Source: an uncultured Candidatus Saccharibacteria bacterium (lineage in GTDB: Bacteria > Patescibacteriota > Minisyncoccia > Phycocordibacterales > WO2-35-19). From it: a stretch of 64,000 nt of DNA. The notes beneath the pieces were generated by a model. It saw only the letters and a program-made list of their open reading frames with translations. It was not told where the DNA came from and did no database searches. Where the stretch lies: the NCBI GenBank assembly GCA_964534305.1, contig CAZHPR010000002.1, forward strand, positions 27,986-91,985, written 5' to 3'. The position numbers and the translations under genes are program-made. Positions within the stretch are counted from its first letter, which is position 1, and every line of letters starts with the position of its first letter. Of this stretch, positions 1-37,933 are shown piece after piece.

Positions 1-536
1 GGAAAAGTAGCTTATGCAAAATTTTGAAGAAAGAGTCTAAGCTTTACGAACATATAAAATTAGACAATTACTTTAAATCCCCTAAAACATTTCCCAAAAA
101 ATTCGGATTTCCAAATTGGGAATTACCATCAAACTTAAAATTTGGCAGATTATTTGCTGATCTGAATAAACTTAAGGCTGGAAAAATTGTAAAGACGAAA
201 GATTTTCCAAAGAGAAAAGGAGAAAAACGAAAACCAATAACTCTGTATCCCAAAAAATACATTTTGGTAGAAGGATTCATGCTTTTTAAAGATAAGGAGG
301 TTCGGAACTTTCTTGATAAGAAAATTTATCTTGAACTGCCAAAAGAGAAAATAATTGAGAGAAGAAAGATCAGATTCGGGCAAGATCATTTGAATGATTA
401 TGATACCAAAGTAGCTATTCCTGAATTTTTGAAATACGGAGTTACTCAAAAGAAATTTGCAGATTACATTGTAGACGCAAACAGACTACAAGAAAAAGTT
501 ATAAAAGAAGTTCAAAATATTATAGAAACCAAATGA
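1..536 (+). CDS. uridine kinase / phosphoribulokinase-family nucleoside kinase, 5'-truncated at the window edge
   Basis: The reading frame is open from the window start with no in-frame stop before the TTG at 24, so the N-terminal P-loop is expected upstream. The C-terminal part (LVEGFMLF... IYLELPKEKIIERRKIR) resembles the uridine kinase core after the P-loop. Confidence 0.5.
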   Translation, partial: KSSLCKILKKESKLYEHIKLDNYFKSPKTFPKKFGFPNWELPSNLKFGRLFADLNKLKAGKIVKTKDFPKRKGEKRKPITLYPKKYILVEGFMLFKDKEVRNFLDKKIYLELPKEKIIERRKIRFGQDHLNDYDTKVAIPEFLKYGVTQKKFADYIVDANRLQEKVIKEVQNIIETK

Positions 537-767
537 GACCACGTGCTCAAGACCTGTCGTTTTTAATTCTGAAAAAATGTTAAAATAACCTTACCTTGTA
601 ATGAACCGCACGGTTCTAACACGAGACGGCCAGCCCGAAATTTTAATGACTGAAAGGAATATAAAATTTCAATGTCCTGGGCGGAGCGAAGGGTTGAGGG
701 AGAAATTCAAAATCCGGGAATATTGACAAAATATAATAAATTTTGTATTTTTTATTCGGAGGAAATT

Positions 768-1082
768 ATGGGAAAAGTTATTCCCTTCGGAAAACCAACA
801 AAACTACAACCTTGCGTTGAACTACAAAAAGCGATCACTGATTTGATTCCCGGCTTGGAGAAGGTAGGTATCGAGATTGATCCGGTACTAAAAATTCAAG
901 CATACCTTTCCACACTAAGGGGAGTCATTTCGAAAAGTGCTATTGCTACTGGTCGGCAAAACTTAAGGTTGATGAGTACTGAAGACCTGAAAGCAATTGC
1001 ACGAAACAGCAACGAACGCCAATGGAAAACTCGACCAGGATATTTTCGAGCACTGGTCGATGAGATTCGATCGCGCTTATGA
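768..1082 (+). CDS. hypothetical protein (GC-richer than its surroundings)
   Basis: The ORF-track frame runs 672..1082, but the internal ATG at 768 is preceded by GGAGG and by TTGACA...TATAAT-like promoter hexamers. No recognisable domain. Local GC is well above the flanks. Confidence 0.4.
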   Translation: MGKVIPFGKPTKLQPCVELQKAITDLIPGLEKVGIEIDPVLKIQAYLSTLRGVISKSAIATGRQNLRLMSTEDLKAIARNSNERQWKTRPGYFRALVDEIRSRL

Positions 1083-1179
1083 ACCCATCAAACAGAGGCC
1101 TGCTCTGCGTTGGTGGGTTTTCTGTTATAGTTCAGTCAGTTCTGTTCTAATATCTTCCTAGGCGGCCAGCTGTTTTCTC

Positions 1180-1247
1180 TATTTGATTTCAATCTCGTGG
1201 AGGTATAGAGTTATGGTGTATTAGTATCTAGCCAAAATATATGGAAA
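1180..1247 (+). repeat. 68-bp direct repeat, copy 1 (includes the start codon of the downstream gene)
   Basis: The sequence tatttgatttcaatctcgtggaggtatagagttatggtgtattagtatctagccaaaatatatggaaa matches 3022..3089 with one mismatch. Confidence 0.9.
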
Positions 1248-1906
1248 AATTAGAAAAAACTTCAGAGGCCGATACTAATATAGGATATTGGGAAAAGGTT
1301 CTGGGTGATCCAACTCCCGCATATCAGGAATTATTTGATGCTGAAAAAGAATATTTGGTAAGCCACATTCCAAACGGTTCCAGAGTTTTAGATATCGGGT
1401 GTGGAGAGGGTAGAAATATGAAAAGTATTTTGGAAGCGACCCGCAACGTTTACGGGGTTGATATGGATACCAAAGCCGTAGAAGATGCTAAAAATAACTT
1501 TAAAGATGTAGAAGGTGTTCGGGTTGTCCAAGGAGAAGCAAAAGCCTTACCTTTTGAGGATAAATCATTTGATGTGGCTACTCTTTTGATGATTTTGCCC
1601 AATTTGGATAATGATAAAGAAGCCTCTTTCAAAGAAGCCGCTAGAGTTCTCAAAGATAATGGTTTTATAGTAGTTAGCACTTTTGCCGAAACCGCTTTTG
1701 ATGAAAGAATGAAGGTATACAAGCAAGTTAATGTACCCATTGAAAAAATTGACGGAACAAAATTTATATTTAAAAATGGAGTAATTTCTGAACAATTTTC
1801 ATTGGAAGAAATTGAAAATTTGGCAAAATCAGCAGGACTTATAATTTCTGAACATCAGAAAGTTGGGACTATAGCTTATATTTGTAAGTTGGTAAAAAAT
1901 CATTAG
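1241..1906 (+). CDS. class I SAM-dependent methyltransferase
   Basis: Motif I VLDIGCGEGRN plus an acidic motif II/post-I pattern. Size (221 aa) is typical of small-molecule MTases. Confidence 0.75.
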   Translation: MEKLEKTSEADTNIGYWEKVLGDPTPAYQELFDAEKEYLVSHIPNGSRVLDIGCGEGRNMKSILEATRNVYGVDMDTKAVEDAKNNFKDVEGVRVVQGEAKALPFEDKSFDVATLLMILPNLDNDKEASFKEAARVLKDNGFIVVSTFAETAFDERMKVYKQVNVPIEKIDGTKFIFKNGVISEQFSLEEIENLAKSAGLIISEHQKVGTIAYICKLVKNH

Positions 1907-1929
1907 CCACTACCTATTTTTGATAAAGA

Positions 1930-2559
1930 ATGAAAGAATTTGATGCAAAAACATATAAAGATGGAAAAGGAGATTTTAATAACGAGGATGAAAACTTATT
2001 AATCTCCCTTCTTAAAACAGACCAAAATCCAAAAAGGATGCTTGATATTGGATGCGGCGATGGAAAATTGACGAAGCGAATAAAAAATCAATTTCCCAAC
2101 ATTGAGATAGTCGCTATAGATAACTCTTCCGACCAAATTGAGATGGCTACCTCTGAACCAAGCGAAATCAGTTTTCAGTTAGTAGACATAGTGGATTATT
2201 CTCCCGAATTAAAATTTGATTGTACATATTCTTTTTATGTTTTTCCTCATATACCAAAAAGTGAGTTGCTACTGGCGCTCAAATCTGTAAAAGAATTGCT
2301 TGAAAAAGAAGGGGTATTTTATCTCTTCACTAATATATGTCTTTTTGATACTTCCAAAGCTACTCTGGAAGATCAGGAAGCTTGTGATATTGTATTTCTA
2401 AACAACTGGCCATCTCAAATAAATCTGGTAGATATGGACGAAATGAAGAAGATGATTACTGGCGCTGGATTTGAAATTATTCAGGATAAAAGATTAGAAA
2501 CTGGAGCCAAGGTTAAGGATTACGGAGATATGATTTCTTGGATGTTTGTTTTAAGATAA
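1930..2559 (+). CDS. class I SAM-dependent methyltransferase (second, paralogous)
   Basis: Motif I MLDIGCGDGKLT. It lies 24 bp after the previous MTase. Confidence 0.7.
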   Translation: MKEFDAKTYKDGKGDFNNEDENLLISLLKTDQNPKRMLDIGCGDGKLTKRIKNQFPNIEIVAIDNSSDQIEMATSEPSEISFQLVDIVDYSPELKFDCTYSFYVFPHIPKSELLLALKSVKELLEKEGVFYLFTNICLFDTSKATLEDQEACDIVFLNNWPSQINLVDMDEMKKMITGAGFEIIQDKRLETGAKVKDYGDMISWMFVLR

Positions 2560-2563
2560 ATAT

Positions 2564-3010
2564 ATGGAAAATTCAGAAGAAAAGATTTGTTTTTATGAAA
2601 GAGAGTTTTACCCGCTTTCTAACTTCTCCTCATTTGCTTTGGAGTGGAAAGGGGTGCTCTATATGACTTCCGAACATGCCTACCACAGCGAGAAATTTAC
2701 TGATCCGGATATAATAGAAAAGATAAAAAACGCGAGATCGGCTCATGATGCTTTTAAGCTCTCAAGAGAATACGAAGATAAAGTGAGGCCGGATTGGCTG
2801 GATGTGCGAGTAGTCGTCATGGAAGAAATAATCAGAGCAAAGGTTGATCAGCATCCATATGTAAAAAAGAAGTTGCTTGAAACTGGAGACAAAGAAATTG
2901 TGGAGGATTCTTGGAGAGATGATTTTTGGGGTTGGGGTCCAAATAAAGATGGACAAAACCAGCTAGGAAAGATTTGGATGAAGGTGAGGGAAGATATAAA
3001 ATCAAAGTAA
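2564..3010 (+). CDS. NADAR (DUF1768, YbiA-like) domain protein
   Basis: FYxxxFYPLSNFS...TSEHAYHSEKF...DW...VMEEIIRAKVDQHP...WGWGPNKDGQNQLGKIWMKVR matches the NADAR signature (LSNF, EH, WG.G.dG.N.LG). Confidence 0.8.
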   Translation: MENSEEKICFYEREFYPLSNFSSFALEWKGVLYMTSEHAYHSEKFTDPDIIEKIKNARSAHDAFKLSREYEDKVRPDWLDVRVVVMEEIIRAKVDQHPYVKKKLLETGDKEIVEDSWRDDFWGWGPNKDGQNQLGKIWMKVREDIKSK

Positions 3011-3021
3011 ATTTATATTTG

Positions 3022-3089
3022 TATTTGATTTCAATCTCGTGGAGGTATAGAGTTATGGGGTATTAGTATCTAGCCAAAATATATGGAAA
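3022..3089 (+). repeat. 68-bp direct repeat, copy 2 (includes the start codon of the SPFH gene)
   Basis: 67/68 identical to 1180..1247. Confidence 0.9.
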
Positions 3090-3829
3090 TAACAATTGGG
3101 ATTATAATCCTTATGATTGTGCTTGTAAGCATCAAGCAGGTCAATCAATATGAGAGGGGGGTTCGCTTTACTCTAGGCAAATTTACAAATATTATGGAGC
3201 CAGGATGGAGACTGGTACTTCCAATATTTCAGTCTTATCAGAAGGTTGATATGCGTGTAAAGGCAGTAGATGTGCCAGACCAAAATGCAATCACCAGAGA
3301 CAATGTCTCTGTTGCGGTCAATGCCGTTATTTATTACAAAGTATCTTCGGCAGAGAAAGCGATTATCGAAGTAGAAGACTTTTATTATGCGGTGTCTCAG
3401 TATGCTCAGACAACAATGAGAAATATTGTTGGAGAAGTTACGCTAGACGAGCTTCTTGCTGGCAGGGAAAAGATTGCAGACAGGATAAGGGAAATCGTAG
3501 ACAAGGAGACGGACGCTTGGGGTCTCAAGGTCAACAATGTTGAACTCAAAGATATAAAGCTTCCAGAGACAATGGAGCGTACAATAGCAAAGCAGGCTGA
3601 AGCAGAGAGGGAGAAGAGAGCGGTCATCATAACTTCAGAAGGAGAGCTCGCCGCAGCGCAAAACATGGCCGGGGCGGCAAAGATACTCGCAGCTTCCGAT
3701 GGAGCTTTGCACCTAAGGACACTTCAGGCTATAAATGATATCTCTTCTGATCAGTCAAATACGGTAGTCTTTACTCTCCCTCTTGAGATAGTGAAGGCAT
3801 TTACAGGTTATAAAAAGGAAGAAAAATAA
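3083..3829 (+). CDS. SPFH/band-7 (stomatin/prohibitin-like) membrane protein
   Basis: An N-terminal TM helix is followed by YERGVRFTLGKF and an AEAEREKRA coiled region typical of SPFH domains. Confidence 0.8.
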   Translation: MEITIGIIILMIVLVSIKQVNQYERGVRFTLGKFTNIMEPGWRLVLPIFQSYQKVDMRVKAVDVPDQNAITRDNVSVAVNAVIYYKVSSAEKAIIEVEDFYYAVSQYAQTTMRNIVGEVTLDELLAGREKIADRIREIVDKETDAWGLKVNNVELKDIKLPETMERTIAKQAEAEREKRAVIITSEGELAAAQNMAGAAKILAASDGALHLRTLQAINDISSDQSNTVVFTLPLEIVKAFTGYKKEEK

Positions 3830-3836
3830 TTAAACA

Positions 3837-4733
3837 ATGAGAAAGTCTCTCTTTTTAATCTTTGTTTTGTTGGTGTTTGGAGCTTTCGCTATTTACTCTT
3901 ATGGTGATGGAGAGGCGAGGGTGTTTTTTGTGGGGGATATTTCTCTCGATAGACATATAAGGGTGGTGGCAGAGAAAAGAGGAGGAGACTTCTTGTTTTC
4001 TTGCATCGGAGACTTTTTGAAAGAAGCTGATGTGGTTGTTGGCAATCTCGAGGGGCCCATTACAGAAAAAGAATCTATAAGCAAAGGTTCTGCTATCGGT
4101 AGTCCCCAAAACTTTATTTTTACATTTCCGACGACGACAGCGAAGCTTTTGCATAAATACAATATAAGGTTGGTAAATCTTGGTAATAATCACTCTGACG
4201 ATTTTGGTAAAGAAGGTCTTCTTTCTACCCAAAAATATTTAGATGATGCTGGTATAAAATACTTTGGTGGTGTATTCGGATTAGAGCCGATCGTTTACAA
4301 AAATATTGGCGGTATTGATTTTGTATTCATTTCTTACAACCAGTTTGGCGGTTTATCCAGAGAGGAAGTGGCAAAAATTATCAAAAAAGAAAAAACAGAT
4401 GAGAACAAGATTGTTGTTTATACTCACTGGGGTGAAGAATATGTCCCGCCAAGTCAGTCAATAAAGGATACGGCAAGATTGTTTGCAGAGAGCGGCGCGG
4501 ATTTTGTAATAGGCTCTCATCCGCACGTGGTGCTAGAGAGAGAATCTATCAATCTTAGTAAGGACAAAAAAACATTTGTTTATTATTCTCTTGGCAACTT
4601 CTTATTTGACCAATACTGGAACAGCGATGTCTCTACCGGTCTTGTCTTGGAGCTTAATATAAAAAATAAAAAAATTGCTATTGCTGAACACAAAGTCTCT
4701 CTTGGTCGCGACGGCCGCACCTGCCTCAAATAA
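3837..4733 (+). CDS. CapA/PGA-cap family metallophosphatase-like protein
   Basis: Signal/TM helix, then the motifs GDISLDR, GNLEGPIT, NLGNNHSDDFG, YTHWGEEY and GSHPHV, characteristic of the CapA family. Confidence 0.75.
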   Translation: MRKSLFLIFVLLVFGAFAIYSYGDGEARVFFVGDISLDRHIRVVAEKRGGDFLFSCIGDFLKEADVVVGNLEGPITEKESISKGSAIGSPQNFIFTFPTTTAKLLHKYNIRLVNLGNNHSDDFGKEGLLSTQKYLDDAGIKYFGGVFGLEPIVYKNIGGIDFVFISYNQFGGLSREEVAKIIKKEKTDENKIVVYTHWGEEYVPPSQSIKDTARLFAESGADFVIGSHPHVVLERESINLSKDKKTFVYYSLGNFLFDQYWNSDVSTGLVLELNIKNKKIAIAEHKVSLGRDGRTCLK

Positions 4734-4786
4734 TTCCAAGGACCGTCCTTGGAAAAAATGAGGTCTTTAAAAATTAAAATTTATAT

Positions 4787-5041
4787 ATGCAAAAGATGTG
4801 GTTTAAAACAAAAAATTATGGGTGGGGTTGGGTACCAATATCTTGGGAGGGATGGGTTGCAACTACTTTTTATGTTCTGGGTATCGTTTATATTTTGTTG
4901 GAGAGAGACAGGGATGCATTGTTAGGTAATAATAGTTGGCTAAATCTTGCAATTAAATTTGTTTTAATAACCGTTATATTTTCAATTATTGCTTATAAGA
5001 AGGGGGGTAAACCAAAGTGGCAATGGGGAGAAGATAAATAA
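4787..5041 (+). CDS. hypothetical small membrane protein
   Basis: Two predicted TM helices, Trp-rich. Bounded by hairpins on both sides. Confidence 0.4.
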   Translation: MQKMWFKTKNYGWGWVPISWEGWVATTFYVLGIVYILLERDRDALLGNNSWLNLAIKFVLITVIFSIIAYKKGGKPKWQWGEDK

Positions 5042-5197
5042 CCCACCCTTACCTTTCCAAGGGTAGCCCTTGGAAAAAATGAGGGCTTTAGATAAGGGTT
5101 TTTGGAAGGTTGGAGTGATATCCACCTTTTTGTTTTTTGGCTGGCCTTTGGCGGTGGTATATTACAGAGTGTAAATTATAAATTGATAAATAGAGAT

Positions 5198-6847
5198 ATG
5201 GCAGTAAAAAAGAAGCACAAGTATATATTTGTAATCGGTGGAGTGATGTCCGGAGTCGGTAAAGGTATAACCACAGCATCTATCGGTACGGTTTTGGAGT
5301 CCAAAGGTTATAAAGTTTCTTTGATAAAAGCAGATCCATATCTCAACGTAGACGCAGGAACAATGAACCCCACTGAACACGGTGAGGTTTTTGTTATGGA
5401 CTCTGGACTAGAGACTGATCAGGATATGGGAAATTATGAAAGATTTCTCGGGCTCTCACTGCCGCCGGAGAATTATATGACAAACGGGATGGTATTTAAG
5501 TATGTTATAGACAAGGAACGAGCTCTCGGATACAAGGGCAAGTGTGTTGAGCCGGTCTACCATATCACAGAAGAGATTTTGAGGAGAATAAAGAAATCTG
5601 TAGACAAGACTGGAGCGGAAATCACTGTTTTTGAAATAGGTGGCACTGTCGGTGAATATCAAAATGCAATATTTATTGAAGCGGCAAGAATGCTCAAACT
5701 ACAAAACCCAAAAGATGTGCTCTTTGTATTGGTGAGCTATTTCCCAATACCTTCCAAGATTGGTGAGATGAAGACCAAGCCTACCCAAAATGCTGTTCGC
5801 CAACTCTCATCTTATGGTGTTAATGCGGACATTATCGTTGCAAGGAGCGAAGAGCCTTTAGACAACAAGAGAAAAGAAAAAGTTTCTCTTTCTTGTGGTA
5901 TACCAGTAGAAAACGTTATTTCTGCACCTGATATAGATTCTATATACGAGGTACCTATAAATTTTGATGAAGGGAGAATATCGGAGATAATCCTAAAATC
6001 ATTTAATCTCAAACCTAGAAAAAAAGATTTGGTAGAATGGCGATCTTTTGTAAATAAATTTAAGAATAGCAAGAAAGAAGTTAGGATCGGTATTGTCGGC
6101 AAATATTTTGATACTGGCAGTTTTGTACTTTCAGATGCTTACATTTCTGTGATTGAAGCGATAAAGATATCGGCTGCAAACCTCGGACTCAAGGCCAAAA
6201 TAGATTGGCTAAATGCAAAGGATTATGAAAAGGATAGTAAGTTGCTCGATAATCTCTCGCATTATCATGGGATACTTGTACCAGGTGGTTTTGGAGAAGC
6301 GGGGATTGAAGGGAAGATAAGAGCTATAAAGTTTTGTAGAGAAAACAAGATCCCTTTTTTTGGTCTCTGTTATGGTATGCAGCTTGCGGTTGTGGAGTTT
6401 GCACGATCTGTCTTGGGGCTTAAGGATGCAAACACAACTGAGATAAATCCAAAAACAAAAAATCCCATAATAGACATTTTGCCAGAACAGAAGAAGCTCT
6501 TAGAGCAGAGCAGAATGGGAGGCACCATGAGGCTTGGGTCTTATCCGTGTCTTTTGAAGAAAGGGACTATTGCCAGAAATGCTTACAATAGTGAGGTGGT
6601 AAGAGAGAGACACAGACACCGCTACGAGGTCAACCCTGAATTTATAGAAAAAATAGAAAAGGCAGGCATGGTCTTTTCTGGGATTTCTCCGGATGGTAGG
6701 CTTATGGAAATCGCAGAATTGCCCAAAGATGTGCATCCATTTTTCCTTGGTACTCAATTCCACCCAGAATTCCTCGCTCGCCCTCTCTCTCCGCACCCTC
6801 TCTTTACTCAATTTATAAAATCAGCAAATACAAGAAAAATTAAATAA
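5198..6847 (+). CDS. pyrG: CTP synthase
   Basis: GGVMSGVGKGITTASIG N-terminal synthetase motif and a C-terminal GATase domain (GLCYGMQ, HPEF). The start is taken at the internal ATG (MAVKKKHKYIFV), not the longer frame that begins at 5102. Confidence 0.9.
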   Translation: MAVKKKHKYIFVIGGVMSGVGKGITTASIGTVLESKGYKVSLIKADPYLNVDAGTMNPTEHGEVFVMDSGLETDQDMGNYERFLGLSLPPENYMTNGMVFKYVIDKERALGYKGKCVEPVYHITEEILRRIKKSVDKTGAEITVFEIGGTVGEYQNAIFIEAARMLKLQNPKDVLFVLVSYFPIPSKIGEMKTKPTQNAVRQLSSYGVNADIIVARSEEPLDNKRKEKVSLSCGIPVENVISAPDIDSIYEVPINFDEGRISEIILKSFNLKPRKKDLVEWRSFVNKFKNSKKEVRIGIVGKYFDTGSFVLSDAYISVIEAIKISAANLGLKAKIDWLNAKDYEKDSKLLDNLSHYHGILVPGGFGEAGIEGKIRAIKFCRENKIPFFGLCYGMQLAVVEFARSVLGLKDANTTEINPKTKNPIIDILPEQKKLLEQSRMGGTMRLGSYPCLLKKGTIARNAYNSEVVRERHRHRYEVNPEFIEKIEKAGMVFSGISPDGRLMEIAELPKDVHPFFLGTQFHPEFLARPLSPHPLFTQFIKSANTRKIK

Positions 6848-6873
6848 TTTTTCTGCTATAATCTGCTCTATCT

Positions 6874-8520
6874 ATGACCCAGAAGGAGGCTTTGGACATA
6901 CTCAAAAGTGGAGAAAATGTGTTTATTACCGGGGCGGCGGGAAGCGGTAAGACCTTTGTGTTGAATGAATATATAAAATATCTAAAGGAACACAATGTCG
7001 ATGTGGGTATCACAGCCTCCACAGGCATCGCAGCGACTCATATGGGCGGAGTTACCATCCACTCTTGGGCTGGTATGGGAATAAAAAACAAACTTACAAA
7101 TTCAGATATAGATGAGATAGTAGAAAAACAGTACTTAAAAAATAAATTAAAAAATGTGAGCGTCCTTGTGATAGATGAGATATCTATGCTGCATCACTTT
7201 CGACTTGATATGGTAGACAGGATACTAAGAAGAGCCAAAAACAAAGAAAGAGAACCATTTGGAGGTATCCAAGTTGTACTTTCTGGAGATTTTTTTCAGC
7301 TACCACCAGTGTCTAGGGCAGAAGAAGGTAAATCTTTTTTTGCCTATCATTCGGACGCTTGGAAGGAAGCCGGTTTTAAAATTTCTTATTTGCACGAGCA
7401 GTATAGACAAGAATCTTCTGATTATCTAAGAGTGCTCAATTCTATAAGAGATAACAATATTGATTCTTATGTTGTAAAGATGCTTGAGTCAAGGTTTAAC
7501 AAAGAGATAAAACATGATAGCTACACCAGGTTGTATTCTCATAACTCGAGTGTCGATACCGAAAACCACAAAGAATTGGAGAGGATATCTGGCAGATTTG
7601 TGGAGTATCAAATGAGAAGTCGGGGAAACAGAAACCTAGTCGAGCTCCTAAAGAAGAGCTGCCTGGCGCCAGAGAGACTTGTTTTGAAGGAGGGGGCAAG
7701 GGTGATGTTTGTAAAAAATAATTTTGAACTAGGCTTTGTGAACGGTACTTTGGGTGTGGTCGCAAAGTGTTCTGAGGATAGTATAAAAATTAGAACCCTA
7801 GAAGGTAAGTTTATAGATGTAGAAGAGGATTCTTGGACAATAGAAGAAGAGGGCAAGATAAAAGCAGAGATAGTACAATATCCGCTCCGGCTTGCCTGGG
7901 CTATCACAGTGCACAAGAGTCAGGGAATGTCTCTTGATGCCGCTGAGATTGATCTATCAAGTTCGTTTGAAAGTGGTATGGGCTACGTAGCTCTCTCTAG
8001 GGTCAGATCACTCGATGGTCTTTATCTAAAAGGTATAAACGATATAGCACTAAAGGTAAATGAGGAGGTGCTTGAATTTGATAGGAGTTTTAGAGAAGCC
8101 TCTGACTCTGCATCAAGCGAGCTAAGGAAAAACAAAAGAGCGCATATAGAAAGTAAACATAATGATTTTATAAAAAAAGTTGGAAATAAAAATAAAGGTA
8201 AAAAAGAGAAGATAGACACGGTTAGTATGACAAAGAATATGCTTTTAGAAGAGCTGTCCATAAAGGAGATCGCCGCACTCAGGAATCTAAAGGAAGAAAC
8301 AATAATCTCTCATATAGAAGAGATACTAGAGAAAGAACCAAATTTTAATATAAAGTTTTTGCAAAAAAGCATCTCTCATTCTCGGCTAGAAAAAATAATC
8401 TCTGCGTTCAGGAAAGTTGGAGTCCAGGAGGGTGGTAAAAGACCGCTCTCACCGGTCAAAAATATCCTAGGCCCCAGCTACTCTTTTAGTGAGATAAGGC
8501 TCGCAAGACTTTTTCTTTAA
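6874..8520 (+). CDS. PIF1/RecD-like P-loop DNA helicase
   Basis: Walker A GAAGSGKTF, ATSTGIAA, a DExx-like VIDEISML, and C-terminal TVHKSQG / YVALSR motifs of the PIF1/AAA_30-UvrD_C_2 family. Confidence 0.65.
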   Translation: MTQKEALDILKSGENVFITGAAGSGKTFVLNEYIKYLKEHNVDVGITASTGIAATHMGGVTIHSWAGMGIKNKLTNSDIDEIVEKQYLKNKLKNVSVLVIDEISMLHHFRLDMVDRILRRAKNKEREPFGGIQVVLSGDFFQLPPVSRAEEGKSFFAYHSDAWKEAGFKISYLHEQYRQESSDYLRVLNSIRDNNIDSYVVKMLESRFNKEIKHDSYTRLYSHNSSVDTENHKELERISGRFVEYQMRSRGNRNLVELLKKSCLAPERLVLKEGARVMFVKNNFELGFVNGTLGVVAKCSEDSIKIRTLEGKFIDVEEDSWTIEEEGKIKAEIVQYPLRLAWAITVHKSQGMSLDAAEIDLSSSFESGMGYVALSRVRSLDGLYLKGINDIALKVNEEVLEFDRSFREASDSASSELRKNKRAHIESKHNDFIKKVGNKNKGKKEKIDTVSMTKNMLLEELSIKEIAALRNLKEETIISHIEEILEKEPNFNIKFLQKSISHSRLEKIISAFRKVGVQEGGKRPLSPVKNILGPSYSFSEIRLARLFL

Positions 8521-29597: not shown

Positions 29598-29685
29598 GGA
29601 GGGTTGGCAGAGTGGTCTAATGCGCCGCACTCGAAACGCGGTTTCCGCCCAAAGCGGATCAAGAGTTCAAATCTCTTACCCTCCG
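29598..29685 (+). tRNA. tRNA-Ser (CGA), type II with a long variable arm
   Basis: Acceptor GGAGGGT/ACCCTCC, D-arm GCA..TGC, anticodon loop CTCGAAA, variable arm TTTCCGCCCAAAGCGGATC, T-arm AAGAGTTCAAATCTCTT. Confidence 0.8.
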
Positions 29686-29689
29686 CAAA

Positions 29690-29930
29690 ATAAGGAGTCG
29701 CGTCAGCGACGACTATATTTTGCGAGAGTCCTGAGCAAAGCGAAGGGCAACCCGCAAAAACCCACTATATTTTGCGAGAGTTCCATTCGAGCCTTGCTCT
29801 CAGGACCTACGGCCTCAGCGCAGTGAAGGGCAGTCGCAAAATGCGAGAGTTCCATTCGAGCTCCGCTCTCAGGACTTGCAGCCTGAGGCTTGCAGAAGGG
29901 CAACCCGCAAAGACAAAATAAACGTGTTAT
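29690..29930 (+). repeat. complex nested/tandem repeat region downstream of tRNA-Ser
   Basis: actatattttgcgagag appears twice, ttccattcgagc twice, ctctcaggac twice and gaagggcaacccgcaaa twice within ~240 bp. Confidence 0.7.
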
Positions 29931-36481: not shown

Positions 36482-36757
36482 ATGGATCTTGCTGGTTTAA
36501 TAAAAATGTTTACAGATATGGGGCTTAGGGTGATACCCTTTATTGGCTCTATCGCCTTTCTTGCATTTGTCTGGGGGATTGCAAGATTTATAAAGTCTAG
36601 TGGTAGTGAGGCAGAGATGAAAAAGAGCAAGGAGTTCCTTATCTGGGGTGTCATTGGGATCTTTGTACTTGCGACAATATGGGGCATTATCTCTTTTATA
36701 AGAGGTGAATTCGGGTTTAGTGGTACCTTCGGTATCCCACAGATAAGAGTAAAATAA
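36482..36757 (+). CDS. small two-TM membrane protein, paralog 3
   Basis: VIPFIGSIAFLAFVWGIARFIKS, the loop SGSEAEMKKSKEF, then LIWGVIGIFVLATIWGIISFIRGE. Confidence 0.6.
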   Translation: MDLAGLIKMFTDMGLRVIPFIGSIAFLAFVWGIARFIKSSGSEAEMKKSKEFLIWGVIGIFVLATIWGIISFIRGEFGFSGTFGIPQIRVK

Positions 36758-36765
36758 AAAATATT

Positions 36766-37041
36766 ATGGGATTAATGAAATTATTAGAAGCGGCACAGGG
36801 GATAGTCACAGGAATACTTATTCCACTTGCCTTTGCCCTTGCTCTCCTGTACTTCTTTTGGGGGGTTGCAAAGTATATAAACTCTGGGGCTGGTGGCGAG
36901 AAGGCGGCAGAGGAGGGTAAGAGAGTTATGATTTGGGGTATAGTAGCCCTCTTTATTGCAACATCAATATGGGGTATAGTTAACTTTATAAAATCAGAAC
37001 TTGGGTTGCCGGGTATACAAAAAGTGAATATCCAAAATTAA
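36766..37041 (+). CDS. small two-TM membrane protein, paralog 4
   Basis: ILIPLAFALALLYFFWGVAKYINS, the loop GAGGEKAAEEGKRVM, then IWGIVALFIATSIWGIVNFIKSE. Confidence 0.6.
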   Translation: MGLMKLLEAAQGIVTGILIPLAFALALLYFFWGVAKYINSGAGGEKAAEEGKRVMIWGIVALFIATSIWGIVNFIKSELGLPGIQKVNIQN

Positions 37042-37060
37042 TTTAATAAATTAAAATAAT

Positions 37061-37486
37061 ATGAAAGAAAAAATAAAATATATAGTAGGTCTTGCACTTT
37101 TATCTCCAGTTTTTGCTTCTGCTCAATTAACACAGACTAGAACTTTGCTGCAAAGTGCAATGAATATAGTTACTCAGATTCTAATACCCCTAGTATTTAC
37201 CCTTGCTCTTTTGTTTTTCTTTTGGGGAATTGCAAAGTATATAAGGTCAGAGGGCACTGGTAAGGAGGAGGGTAAGAAAATAATGATCTGGGGAGTTGTT
37301 GCACTATTCGTAATGTCTACAATTTGGGGGTTAGTTTCTTTTATAAGGGGAGAACTTTTGGGTAATACTAGCGCTCCTATATCTCAACCTGTTCCTACAA
37401 TTGGTGCCGGGGCTGGTGGGGGAGCTTCTATTCCTGGTCAAGATCCTGGTAGTGGTTATATATCAGGGCTGCCTGCAGGATTCTAA
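37061..37486 (+). CDS. small two-TM membrane protein, paralog 5 (signal peptide plus a Gly-rich C-terminal tail)
   Basis: Signal peptide SPVFASAQ. ILIPLVFTLALLFFFWGIAKYIRSEGTGKEEGKKIMIWGVVALFVMSTIWGLVSFIRGE, then a GAGAGGGASIPGQDPGSG tail. Confidence 0.6.
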   Translation: MKEKIKYIVGLALLSPVFASAQLTQTRTLLQSAMNIVTQILIPLVFTLALLFFFWGIAKYIRSEGTGKEEGKKIMIWGVVALFVMSTIWGLVSFIRGELLGNTSAPISQPVPTIGAGAGGGASIPGQDPGSGYISGLPAGF

Positions 37487-37509
37487 AATTATCTGTGGAT
37501 AAGGATTTG

Positions 37510-37538
37510 TTGAAAATAAACTAAAATATTGGTATAAT
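37510..37538 (+). promoter_or_regulatory. sigma70-like internal promoter TTGAAA-17-TATAAT inside the small-protein array
   Basis: It lies in the only ~100-bp gap of the array, upstream of paralog 6. Confidence 0.5.
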
Positions 37539-37585
37539 TAACAGGTAAAAAATTGGTCGTTTAATTATTAATTTTTGCAAAAATT

Positions 37586-37933
37586 ATGAAAAAAATAGCT
37601 ATAATCGGCGTTGCTTCATTGCTTCCAGTGTTTGCTTCAGCTCAGGATCTGAGCAATATCCAGACACTTGTACAATCTATAGGTAATATTATAAACATAG
37701 CAATACCTATAGTCTTTGCTTTGGCAATGCTATTCTTCTTCTGGGGTCTTGCAAAGTACATCCTAGGCTCAGAGCACGACAAGGATGCGGCGAAGAAGAC
37801 TATGATCTGGGGAGTTGTTGCACTATTCGTGATGGCTGCTGTATGGGGCCTTGTAAGCTTCATAAGTAGGGCTGTTGGTGTAAACTCTCAGGGTCCTGGA
37901 TTTACTCCAAGCAGCTTGGTTCCAAGAGGCTAG
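37586..37933 (+). CDS. small two-TM membrane protein, paralog 6
   Basis: Signal peptide LLPVFASAQ. AIPIVFALAMLFFFWGLAKYILGSEHDKDAAKKTMIWGVVALFVMAAVWGLVSFISRA. Confidence 0.6.
   Translation: MKKIAIIGVASLLPVFASAQDLSNIQTLVQSIGNIINIAIPIVFALAMLFFFWGLAKYILGSEHDKDAAKKTMIWGVVALFVMAAVWGLVSFISRAVGVNSQGPGFTPSSLVPRG

Follow-up and report, generated by a model that had tools for sequence, protein, structure and literature searches.

Homology-facilitated illegitimate recombination, or microhomology-mediated unequal recombination, in natural transformation has been described in Acinetobacter and Streptococcus pneumoniae, with joins that are typically a few nucleotides long. It is a close described process for the locus presented here. 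Other candidates for comparison are integron cassettes, tRNA-linked islets and transposable elements and, for the genes themselves, the NADAR proteins. NADAR families differ in one residue of the last beta-strand, which is glutamate in the YbiA family, aspartate in the DarT1-linked BC4488 family and histidine in phage gp30.3 (PMC11125620). NADAR enzymes can act as antitoxins, YbiA-family members (YarT-YbiA) included, and only BC4488-family proteins are reported to be associated with DarT (PMC11125620).

The window, that is, the whole 64-kb stretch of DNA that was analysed, comes from a strain of the uncultivated CPR group Parcubacteria and carries two methyltransferase genes (MT1 and MT2) and a NADAR gene between two copies of a direct repeat, R. 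The features are:

24–536, + strand: PRK/uridine-kinase-family gene, 3' part (Pfam PRK, 7e-07)
656–708, + strand: 53-nt block common to contig L004 at 94% identity (blastn, motif scans)
723–751, + strand: promoter-like TTGACA-17-TATTTT before the small gene (scan, 10/12 matches)
768–1082, + strand: small gene, 104 aa, uncharacterised small protein family (no match in Pfam, NCBIfam, PHROG or PADLOC)
1180–1247, + strand: R copy 1, duplicated SPFH promoter/leader before MT1, T at 1217; missing here in L002 and L003
1183–1211, + strand: promoter-like TTGATT-N17-TAGAGT in R copy 1 (read from the sequence)
1234–1247, + strand: AAAATATATGGAAA, 14-nt microhomology, putative recombination junction (blastn)
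1241–1906, + strand: MT1, class I SAM methyltransferase, 221 aa (Pfam Methyltransf_11, 9e-23)
1930–2559, + strand: MT2, class I SAM methyltransferase, 209 aa (Pfam Methyltransf_25, 5e-14)
2564–3010, + strand: NADAR protein, YbiA family, 148 aa, 4 nt after MT2 (Pfam NADAR PF08719, 1.2e-31)
3022–3089, + strand: R copy 2, native SPFH promoter with a leader of about 23 nt and the first 7 nt of SPFH
3083–3829, + strand: SPFH/Band 7 membrane protein, the owner of R (Pfam Band_7, 3e-41)

The repeat R and the SPFH upstream region

The two copies of R (1180–1247 and 3022–3089) are equal at 67 of 68 bases, an identity far beyond chance. The sole mismatch is repeat position 38, a T in copy 1 (1217) and a G in copy 2 (3059). 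Outside the copies, the sequences differ at once to the left and to the right. Both copies end with ATGGAAA, which opens the coding sequence of MT1 (at 1241) and that of the SPFH gene (at 3083). The first-pass annotation had described a 68-bp pair with one base off, each copy ending in the start of the next gene; its coordinates proved exact. Its gene content between the repeats, two class I SAM methyltransferases and a NADAR protein, is supported by Pfam for all gene calls.

R is present twice in the 64-kb window. Apart from L004's own copy, no further R was detected in the loci of 80 related species, in viral contigs or in JGI metagenome contigs, and a dispersed repeat was rejected on these counts. 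The annotation had itself considered a common multi-copy intergenic repeat and a universally conserved gene order as readings that would undo its cassette. R was not found as a multi-copy element in the window or the other collections, and the gene order is not kept in 80 other species. Repeat analysis revealed no terminal inverted repeats in R, and neither a transposase nor an integrase is located near it. The folding energy was no better than that of shuffled sequence (z = +1.1 and +1.4) and Rfam gave no matches even at E <= 1; a regulatory RNA or riboswitch in R was rejected on these grounds. The variable bases among the three versions of R are all located in codon 2 of a mini-ORF (GGAGG-9 nt-ATG NNN TAT TAG). 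The mini-ORF was rejected as functional because the homologous region in L011 conserves neither GGAGG nor ATG.

R is most likely the native upstream region of SPFH. Copy 2, with G at 3059, is identical in L002 and L003 and 97% identical in L004, in each case directly before SPFH. An alignment of R with the sequence before SPFH in L011, a different species, scored 38; 500 shuffles averaged 13.9 (sd 2.1), and none of them reached 38. Both hexamers of TTGATT-N17-TAGAGT, which is also present in copy 2 at 3025–3053, are kept in L011. They were not flagged by the promoter scan because the 8/12 matches are below the threshold of 9/12. The hexamers and this one cross-species comparison suggest a promoter function and agree with the earlier description of the repeat as promoter/5'-end sequence. 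The SPFH protein is well conserved, with 75–93% amino acid identity in 80 Paceibacteria species.

Three arrangements of the locus

Related contigs revealed three arrangements, which all begin at a tRNA-Gln(CTG) as left border. Arrangement A, the window, is small gene-R-MT1-MT2-NADAR-R-SPFH. Arrangement B (L002 and L003, 97.7% nucleotide identity) is MT1-MT2-NADAR-R-SPFH and lacks the left R. Arrangement C (L004) is small gene-R-SPFH and has no cassette. This is the outcome of the synteny comparison proposed in the first-pass annotation: in L004, one R and then SPFH directly follow a small hypothetical gene. The SPFH protein is the same in all three arrangements, with 18–25 synonymous differences.

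The homology between A and B opens exactly at AAAATATATGGAAA, where L002 position 783 corresponds to window position 1234 (blastn). Upstream of this junction, the B sequence is unrelated to A. The 14-mer is common to the starts of MT1 and SPFH and occurs in the 64 kb only at 1234 and 3076; a 13-mer is limited to the starts of MT1, NADAR and SPFH. The C-type contig L004 matches the window in the left flank of R copy 1 and in the 53-nt block.

Sequence identity along the locus is mosaic. A and B differ by one SNP over 1781–3159, yet SNPs are clustered densely within MT1, whose 5' half differs by up to 14%. In L004, R and SPFH share about 98% nucleotide identity with the window, and the identity is about 79% immediately past the SPFH stop codon. 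L004 originates from a diverged lineage (PGA_cap 77% amino acid identity) and carries another small gene. A donor with the 104-aa gene followed by R and SPFH was not found among the contigs. A second repeat-flanked gene indel is located 1.6 kb downstream, at 4734–5090.

The left flank is a variable islet. In A and in C, the same pair of flanks encloses small genes of about 460 nt that are unrelated to each other: L004 carries, from the 53-nt block to R, a 96-aa gene unrelated to the 104-aa gene of the window. The 53-nt block is the left border of this swappable segment. It holds the motif CCTGGGCGGAGCGAAGGG, then GAGGGAGAAATTC, and is followed without a break in L097 and L004 by a repeat of the tRNA-Gln 3' end, either perfect or degenerate. 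In other Parcubacteria, the islet motif precedes small GIY-YIG genes. L097 reaches 345 nt further upstream than the window, to the 3' end of the tRNA-Gln. The tRNA 3'-end duplicate is a perfect 15 nt at L097 204–218; degenerate copies are present in L004 (about 869–886) and the window (about 709–720). These repeats bracket PRK and NUDIX cargo and not the methyltransferase-NADAR block. Islet cargo varies by strain and includes the PRK kinase, NUDIX, a 218-aa gene and small genes. The PRK-family gene, whose start lies upstream of the window, is whole in L097 (194 aa); it is absent from L002 and L004 and is islet cargo in the window strain only. The islet contigs, which are short, contain no integrase.

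The 104-aa gene had been called a GC-rich orphan with its own promoter. The promoter site was confirmed (TTGACA-17-TATTTT at 723–751). The gene is no orphan: 51 homologous cluster representatives align from residue 1, many of them at full length. Its GC content is only mildly raised, at 43% compared with a window mean of 39.6%, and equals that of SPFH. Neither the gene nor the 53-nt block matched a viral contig. The gene also had no PHROG match, and a phage origin of either was rejected. The impression of a mobile island holds for the tRNA-Gln-proximal islet to the left and fails for the cassette.

The MT2-NADAR pair

MT2 and NADAR, with a spacing of 4 nt, are kept together in L090, L091–93, L094–96, L100–101, L102 and L103, which makes seven Parcubacteria lineages with that of the window. 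The six other lineages carry the pair without MT1. L094 has the order tRNA-Gln(CTG)...MT2-NADAR...SPFH. With the tRNA-Gln upstream and SPFH downstream in L094, the pair appears ancestral here rather than recently inserted, and the tRNA-Gln...SPFH backbone seems to predate the duplication. A discrete mobile cassette, as proposed in the first-pass annotation, does not agree with this distribution, since L002 and L003 carry all three genes ahead of R-SPFH but lack the left R, and MT2-NADAR recurs without MT1.

MT1 appears to be a lineage-specific neighbour that is unlinked to MT2-NADAR elsewhere. It is not upstream of MT2 in L090–L096, L100, L102 or L103, and none of its 97 homologues apparently shares a contig with MT2 or NADAR matches, except for the source contig. 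NCBIfam gave no specific match for MT1. The AlphaFold model of MT2 (pLDDT 92) has a generic Rossmann methyltransferase fold. Despite this confident model, no substrate could be assigned by structure, because the best PDB matches are heterogeneous class I methyltransferases at TM 0.6–0.7, including Trm9, NTMT1, DhpI and ToxA.

The NADAR protein belongs to the YbiA family and not to the DarT-linked family. It scored 110.6 bits with PF08719 (cutoff 35.1) and, in the subfamily search by HMM, 99.6 bits with TIGR02464 (cutoff 73.7), a score above the cutoff that assigns it to the YbiA family. Among solved structures, E. coli YbiA (2B3W) is the closest match (2.7e-20). In the phmmer sequence alignment, 'eiVEds' of the window protein pairs with 'klVEht' of 2B3W, which would place the VE(D/H) glutamate in the last strand. 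Features of the BC4488 type were not found: the residue is Glu instead of Asp, and the 148 aa make up the bare domain without N-terminal extension. No ART Pfam domain is located next to NADAR at this locus or downstream in the seven lineages. The earlier hint at a DarT antitoxin is not borne out, given the glutamate, the TIGR02464 assignment and the lack of a conserved adjacent ADP-ribosyltransferase. Membership in a defence system was rejected, as PADLOC matches are at the domain level only.

The genomic context of the pair changes on the 3' side. The gene after NADAR varies by lineage: SPFH, DKNYY, NTP_transf_2, CYTH, DUF1905, DUF1801 or an unknown gene. L100 has a tight NUDIX-MT2-NADAR-CYTH operon amid ribosomal and tRNA-modification genes. 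In L098, a Q_salvage N-glycosidase takes the place of NADAR after the MT2 homologue. Operon context and glycosidase replacement point to nucleotide salvage or damage control, and they hint at a two-enzyme module. Such a module, uncharacterised and widespread in Parcubacteria, would combine a YbiA-type N-glycosidase with its own methyltransferase to act on a modified or damaged ribonucleotide, and the strain-level rewiring by R copy 1 would be an adaptive co-regulation with the SPFH membrane scaffold and not neutral debris; this combined reading is quite doubtful. Possible roles of the module are base salvage (7-deazaguanine/queuine-like, methylated purine) or the removal of an ADP-ribosyl-type base adduct.

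Origin of the duplication and known systems

The window strain is probably a recombinant joined at a microhomology, by which the SPFH promoter/leader R was copied before the MT1 block (probability about 0.6). The interval between tRNA-Gln(CTG) and SPFH would be a recombination hot spot, with cargo that differs among related strains, and MT2-NADAR, with MT1 in this clade, an older resident. DNA from a small gene-R-SPFH lineage may have been joined to an MT1-MT2-NADAR-R-SPFH backbone. The join would have missed the long R-SPFH homology and occurred ectopically at AAAATATATGGAAA, common to the start regions of MT1 and SPFH, by homology-facilitated illegitimate recombination or unequal recombination. 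The product would be an extra R fused in frame to MT1. Of the earlier proposals, recombination between gene 5' ends fits this geometry best. Identical promoter/leaders would then drive MT1-MT2-NADAR and SPFH, and the 1.84-kb segment would now be deletable by recombination between the two copies of R. The genes are likely of a housekeeping or salvage type: NADAR is predicted to be a YbiA-family N-glycosidase or de-ADP-ribosylase and MT2 its dedicated methyltransferase. The direction and number of events are not readable from the three arrangements.

A Campbell-type insertion, which corresponds to the main idea of the first-pass annotation, would yield an identical product, exactly the structure seen, from a circle formed at the same microhomology. 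A 1,842-bp circle of MT1-MT2-NADAR and R, excised from B via two AAAATATATGGAAA, would have entered the single R of a cassette-less genome. L004 provides an empty site with one R, and the near-identity of 1781–3159 in A and B (1 SNP) suggests a recent exchange. The divergence of the MT1 5' half between A and B (up to 14%) argues against the whole cassette being one recent import, and the ancestral position of MT2-NADAR upstream of SPFH speaks against the model. The model also needs two rare steps and the transfer of a non-replicating circle. Logan contig L007 (1,872 nt), whose first 30 nt equal its last 30 nt, resembles a circular form but was rejected as such: at low coverage, the cycle is the expected k=31 de Bruijn product of a 37-nt common run. 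In L006, from the same sample, the first 27 nt of R are missing. Circle insertion is rather unlikely. An assembly artefact, in which the assembler looped through the repeat and produced a false second R or a false join, is very improbable. In its favour, the k=31 Logan contigs of the window strain all break inside R. Against it, the single SNP limits the identical runs within R to 37 and 30 nt, which any assembler resolves with k >= 39 or 150-nt reads. Independent assemblies contain small gene-R (L097), R(T)-MT1...NADAR followed by R (L007) and NADAR-R(G)-SPFH (L001, L008), and B-type contigs independently show NADAR-R-SPFH. The link small gene-R(T)-MT1 is spanned solely by the window's own assembly.

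A role of R as an autonomous or dispersed element that recruits or marks cassettes, be it MITE-like, an attachment site of the integron type or a structured regulatory RNA, is hardly credible. R does border a gene block, and the repeat-flanked indel at 4734–5090 shows that the geometry recurs. Its count of two in 64 kb and none in related loci or viral contigs, the lack of terminal inverted repeats, transposase, integrase, Rfam match and a fold beyond that of shuffled sequence, and its orthology to the ordinary SPFH upstream region in L011 all speak against an element. A toxin-antitoxin or anti-phage module of the DarT/YarT type with NADAR as the antitoxin is equally hard to maintain. The known antitoxins among NADAR proteins, YbiA family included (YarT-YbiA; PMC11125620), and weak sub-threshold matches to defence models that contain NADAR (NF053876, 86 bits with a cutoff of 240; PDC-M42C, 3e-10) would favour it. 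No ART-like gene adjoins NADAR, its downstream neighbour changes in every lineage, its conserved partner is a methyltransferase, and the L100 operon and the L098 Q_salvage replacement point to nucleotide metabolism of the salvage or damage-control type.

With its probable recombination at the microhomology, the locus is a product of ordinary genome shuffling, neither a mobile cassette nor a toxin-antitoxin system. The apparent mobile cassette consists of a conserved MT2-NADAR pair and an unrelated methyltransferase beside a hypervariable tRNA islet. Specialists of bacterial genome evolution will find nothing surprising here. The value of the locus is that of a clean natural case, in which a short common start-codon context probably mis-paired in CPR recombination and a promoter was duplicated before a neighbouring operon. 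The states with cassette, without cassette and without left repeat are all present, as needed to read the event. MT2-NADAR alone holds promise for biology more widely, since little is understood of what YbiA-family NADAR proteins do physiologically (PMC11125620).

The NADAR protein resembles E. coli YbiA/COG3236 (TIGR02464), a bare domain of about 150 aa with the family-defining Glu. Unlike E. coli YbiA, it has a dedicated upstream methyltransferase at a fixed spacing of 4 nt; methyltransferases are unmentioned in PMC11125620. As in integron cassettes, direct repeats bound a gene block, and relatives with and without the block exist. R has no imperfect palindrome or hairpin of the attC type, and no IntI tyrosine recombinase is encoded in window 1–8500, L001–L004 or L097. 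Integron cassettes are usually promoterless, whereas R carries a promoter and a start codon, and the B relative keeps the genes without the left repeat. The 68-nt direct repeat, with two copies, far exceeds any target-site duplication of a transposon, IS or MITE. The common start of A, B and C at tRNA-Gln(CTG), the strain-variable cargo and the tRNA 3'-end duplicates are reminiscent of tRNA-linked islets; in contrast to these, the contigs at hand contain no integrase and R is not an attachment site.

Homology-facilitated illegitimate recombination is matched closely. Cases elsewhere differ in that the event here is deduced from comparative sequence alone, and the 14 nt are longer than the typical join. 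This microhomology sits exactly on two start codons. One long anchor with the other end joined at a short string, foreign DNA together with a duplicated segment, and mosaic tracts around the locus are shared with the described process.

The repeat R and the upstream region of SPFH

The two copies of the 68-nt direct repeat R enclose genes for two class I SAM methyltransferases (MT1 and MT2) and a NADAR protein:

1180-1247, R copy 1, T at 1217
1241-1906, MT1, class I SAM methyltransferase
1930-2559, MT2, class I SAM methyltransferase
2564-3010, NADAR protein
3022-3089, R copy 2, G at 3059
3083-3829, SPFH/Band 7 protein
3837-4733, PGA_cap protein
4734-4769 and 5055-5090, 36-nt direct repeats bracketing an 84-aa gene (4787-5041)

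The copies differ in one base over 68 nt and have unrelated flanks on the left and right. Both end with ATGGAAA, the first seven bases of each downstream ORF. The first-pass annotation had described two near-identical 68-nt repeats ending in gene starts, and its coordinates, the ATGGAAA end and the gene calls hold. R is located immediately 5′ of SPFH in every close relative (contigs L002, L003 and L004). L011 represents a different species with an SPFH protein 92% identical to that of the window. The local alignment of R with its SPFH upstream region scored 38 (shuffle mean 13.9, sd 2.1; 0 of 500 shuffles reached 38). Conserved blocks are CTTGATTTC, GTATAGAGTT, TATTAG and AAAATAT. Judged by sequence, R is the upstream region proper to SPFH. 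The conserved blocks include TTGATT-N17-TAGAGT, plausibly a non-consensus sigma-70 promoter, which would produce a leader of ~23 nt.

Other identities of R were rejected. Fold z-scores of +1.1 and +1.4 and the lack of an Rfam match spoke against a structured RNA. A dispersed element, such as the common multi-copy intergenic repeat considered in the first-pass annotation, was not observed: the 64-kb window holds no third copy, and R was detected neither at the SPFH loci of 80 related species nor in viral contigs, and among JGI metagenome contigs only on one contig of a relative. A GGAGG with a three-codon mini-ORF after it inside R was discounted because neither is conserved in L011. In copy 1, 10-12 nt at 1219-1230 (GTATTAGTATC) are complementary to MT1 codons 11-14 at 1271-1282 (GATACTAATA), allowing a 12-bp hairpin across the MT1 start in the copy-1 context only. 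It is probably due to chance, since the L002 MT1 allele differs at those bases.

Three arrangements and the origin of A

Exact-protein look-ups recovered independent contigs of relatives. These have three gene arrangements, all starting at the same tRNA-Gln(CTG):

A (window, L001, L007, L097): tRNA-Gln, ~190 nt, tRNA 3′-end duplicate, PRK-family kinase, 53-nt block, 104-aa gene, R, MT1-MT2-NADAR, R, SPFH
B (L002/L003, 97.7% nt identity): tRNA-Gln, 218-aa gene, MT1-MT2-NADAR, R, SPFH
C (L004): tRNA-Gln, NUDIX, 53-nt block, unrelated 96-aa gene, R, SPFH

In C, the site of MT1-MT2-NADAR is empty. The relative without the three genes, proposed as a synteny comparison in the first-pass annotation, thus exists, with the 96-aa gene, a single R and SPFH. 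The sequence just left of R and the 53-nt block in L004 match the copy-1 side of the window. B has the three genes and lacks the left R; its homology to the window begins at 1234, the first base of AAAATATATGGAAA. A therefore looks C-like on its left half and B-like on its right. AAAATATATGGAAA, the site of the join in A, is a 14-mer common to the MT1 and SPFH start regions and was not found elsewhere in the window. Within the window, the 13-mer AAATATATGGAAA is present only at the starts of MT1, NADAR and SPFH.

In the simplest event producing A, C-like DNA would have recombined with B-like DNA, whether chromosomal or incoming, with one of the crossovers in ordinary homology and the other shifted to the 14-nt string. 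Such an event counts as homology-facilitated illegitimate (or unequal) recombination and would explain that R ends exactly at ATGGAAA, that its left border is the NADAR/R junction of B and that the left copy is absent from B. We assign this origin of A, with the join at the 14-nt start-region string, a probability of about 0.6. The integration of a 1,842-bp circle into R, an earlier alternative, would yield the same product but requires a circle to form at the same microhomology and a second event; we consider it unlikely. Its apparent support comes from L007, a contig of 1,872 nt whose ends overlap by 30 nt, and a k=31 graph yields such an overlap from a 37-nt shared run at low coverage. After a misplaced crossover, MT1-MT2-NADAR would now have a second SPFH promoter/leader in front of it, and recombination between the R copies could delete the 1.84-kb segment.

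Sequence comparisons indicate that the tRNA-Gln-SPFH locus recombines often. L004 1337-2144 and window 3022-3829, comprising R and SPFH, share ~98% nt identity, which falls at once to ~79% after the SPFH stop (~3830; PGA_cap ~77% aa). All three arrangements encode one and the same SPFH protein (100% identity), with 18-25 synonymous differences between the genes. This points to a recent movement of the R-SPFH block between lineages. A and B differ by one SNP across 1781-3159 and by dense clusters (up to 14%) within MT1. A second indel of the same geometry is located 1.6 kb downstream: L002 has one 36-nt repeat and no 84-aa gene, which had no family match. Each 36-nt repeat starts with a hairpin (TTCCAAGGnnnnCCTTGGAA) and continues with AAAAATGAGGnCTTTA; between the two copies, the stem tops differ by a compensatory change.

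A conserved MT2-NADAR pair

The three genes are not a unit. A further six Parcubacteria lineages (L090, L091-93, L094-96, L100-101, L102 and L103) have NADAR 4 nt after MT2, with 61-81% identity for MT2 and 77-88% for NADAR where tblastn/blastp values were obtained. Outer neighbours differ in each lineage, and MT1 adjoins the pair in none of the six. MT1 is a member of a separate Patescibacteria family, which shares only the source contig with MT2/NADAR matches. The discrete cassette first proposed is contradicted by this recurrence without MT1 and by the presence of the genes without left R in B. In L094, tRNA-Gln(CTG), GIY-YIG, a 132-aa gene, MT2, NADAR, three small genes and SPFH follow each other; the backbone from tRNA-Gln via MT2-NADAR to SPFH is therefore older than the R duplication. 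B probably resembles the older state, with the pair lost or replaced in C. By its SPFH relatives, the organism belongs to Patescibacteria/Parcubacteria (Paceibacteria). Across 80 other species, SPFH had none of the neighbours described here; this excludes the universal gene order that the first-pass annotation named as a refutation, and the linkage is confined to this clade.

The NADAR protein scores above the TIGR02464 cutoff, aligns best with E. coli YbiA (2B3W, 2.7e-20) and has the family-defining Glu of the last strand. A DarT association, suggested initially together with an antitoxin role, is reported to be confined to BC4488 NADARs of the Asp type; known YbiA-type antitoxins (YarT-YbiA) adjoin a small ART (PMC11125620). 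No small ART was a conserved NADAR neighbour here, and the suggestion was abandoned. The predicted MT2 structure (pLDDT 92) is a generic class I methyltransferase without a specific structural neighbour. Neither MT1 nor MT2 reached a specific NCBIfam cutoff, and PADLOC and PHROGs matched at the domain level only. L100 encodes a tight operon NUDIX-MT2-NADAR-CYTH (4597-6649). In L098 (5001-6603), a Q_salvage (PF10343) N-glycosidase follows the MT2 homologue in the place of NADAR; one N-glycosidase may have replaced another non-orthologously. Both contexts hint at nucleotide salvage or damage control rather than defence. The conserved pair is the only element of some wider interest.

The tRNA-Gln islet and other repeats

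The impression of a mobile island, unsupported for the methyltransferase-NADAR block, fits the tRNA-Gln-proximal part with its tRNA 3′-end duplicate and the motif in the 53-nt block. In L097, 15 nt of the tRNA-Gln(CTG) 3′ end (CCAGGTCCGGCAGCC) are directly repeated without mismatch, at 16-30 and 204-218 with starts 188 nt apart, resembling an attachment site. No integrase was visible in the islet in the contigs recovered. The 53-nt block contains CCTGAGCGnAGCGAAGGG, which immediately precedes small GIY-YIG genes in other Parcubacteria and, in L091, directly follows a tRNA. The motif TATAAAATTTCAG..CCTGAGCGnAGCGAAGGG, present at window 662-708, L004 823-886, L097 60-222, L090 ~6800-6850 and L091 ~3380-3460, borders the cargo of the tRNA-Gln islet. 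In L091 it comes after a tRNA 3′ end and GCCAATTTT, which also follows tRNA-Gln in L097. These sites suggest remnants of GIY-YIG elements beside tRNA genes. The 104-aa gene, initially labelled a GC-rich orphan, has 51 homologous representatives; its GC content is above the window mean, but only at 43% versus 39.6%.

Another tRNA-side repeat cluster follows tRNA-Ser (29598-29686). Between 29700 and 29900, a related motif (GAGAGTCCTGAGCAAAGCGAAGGGCAACCCGCAAAA and GCGAGAGTTCCATTCGAGC) is repeated in tandem, with some of the copies inverted; repeat family D7 (29773-29887) is part of this cluster. In family D1/D2 (36617-37866), an 86-nt coding segment (…IWGVV…WG…FI…) recurs as four diverged copies along a series of small ORFs, which probably encode tandem paralogous small membrane or secreted proteins.

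The first interpretation is partly supported: it stands for a promoter/5′-end sequence duplicated by recombination, R being the SPFH upstream region, and fails for a discrete mobile cassette, which dissolves into an MT2-NADAR pair and a separate MT1. The structure is most likely a strain-specific promoter/leader duplication that arose by recombination where two start regions share a short sequence. It sits in a recombination-prone, tRNA-adjoining interval of a Parcubacteria genome and adds one more case to a known kind of event.
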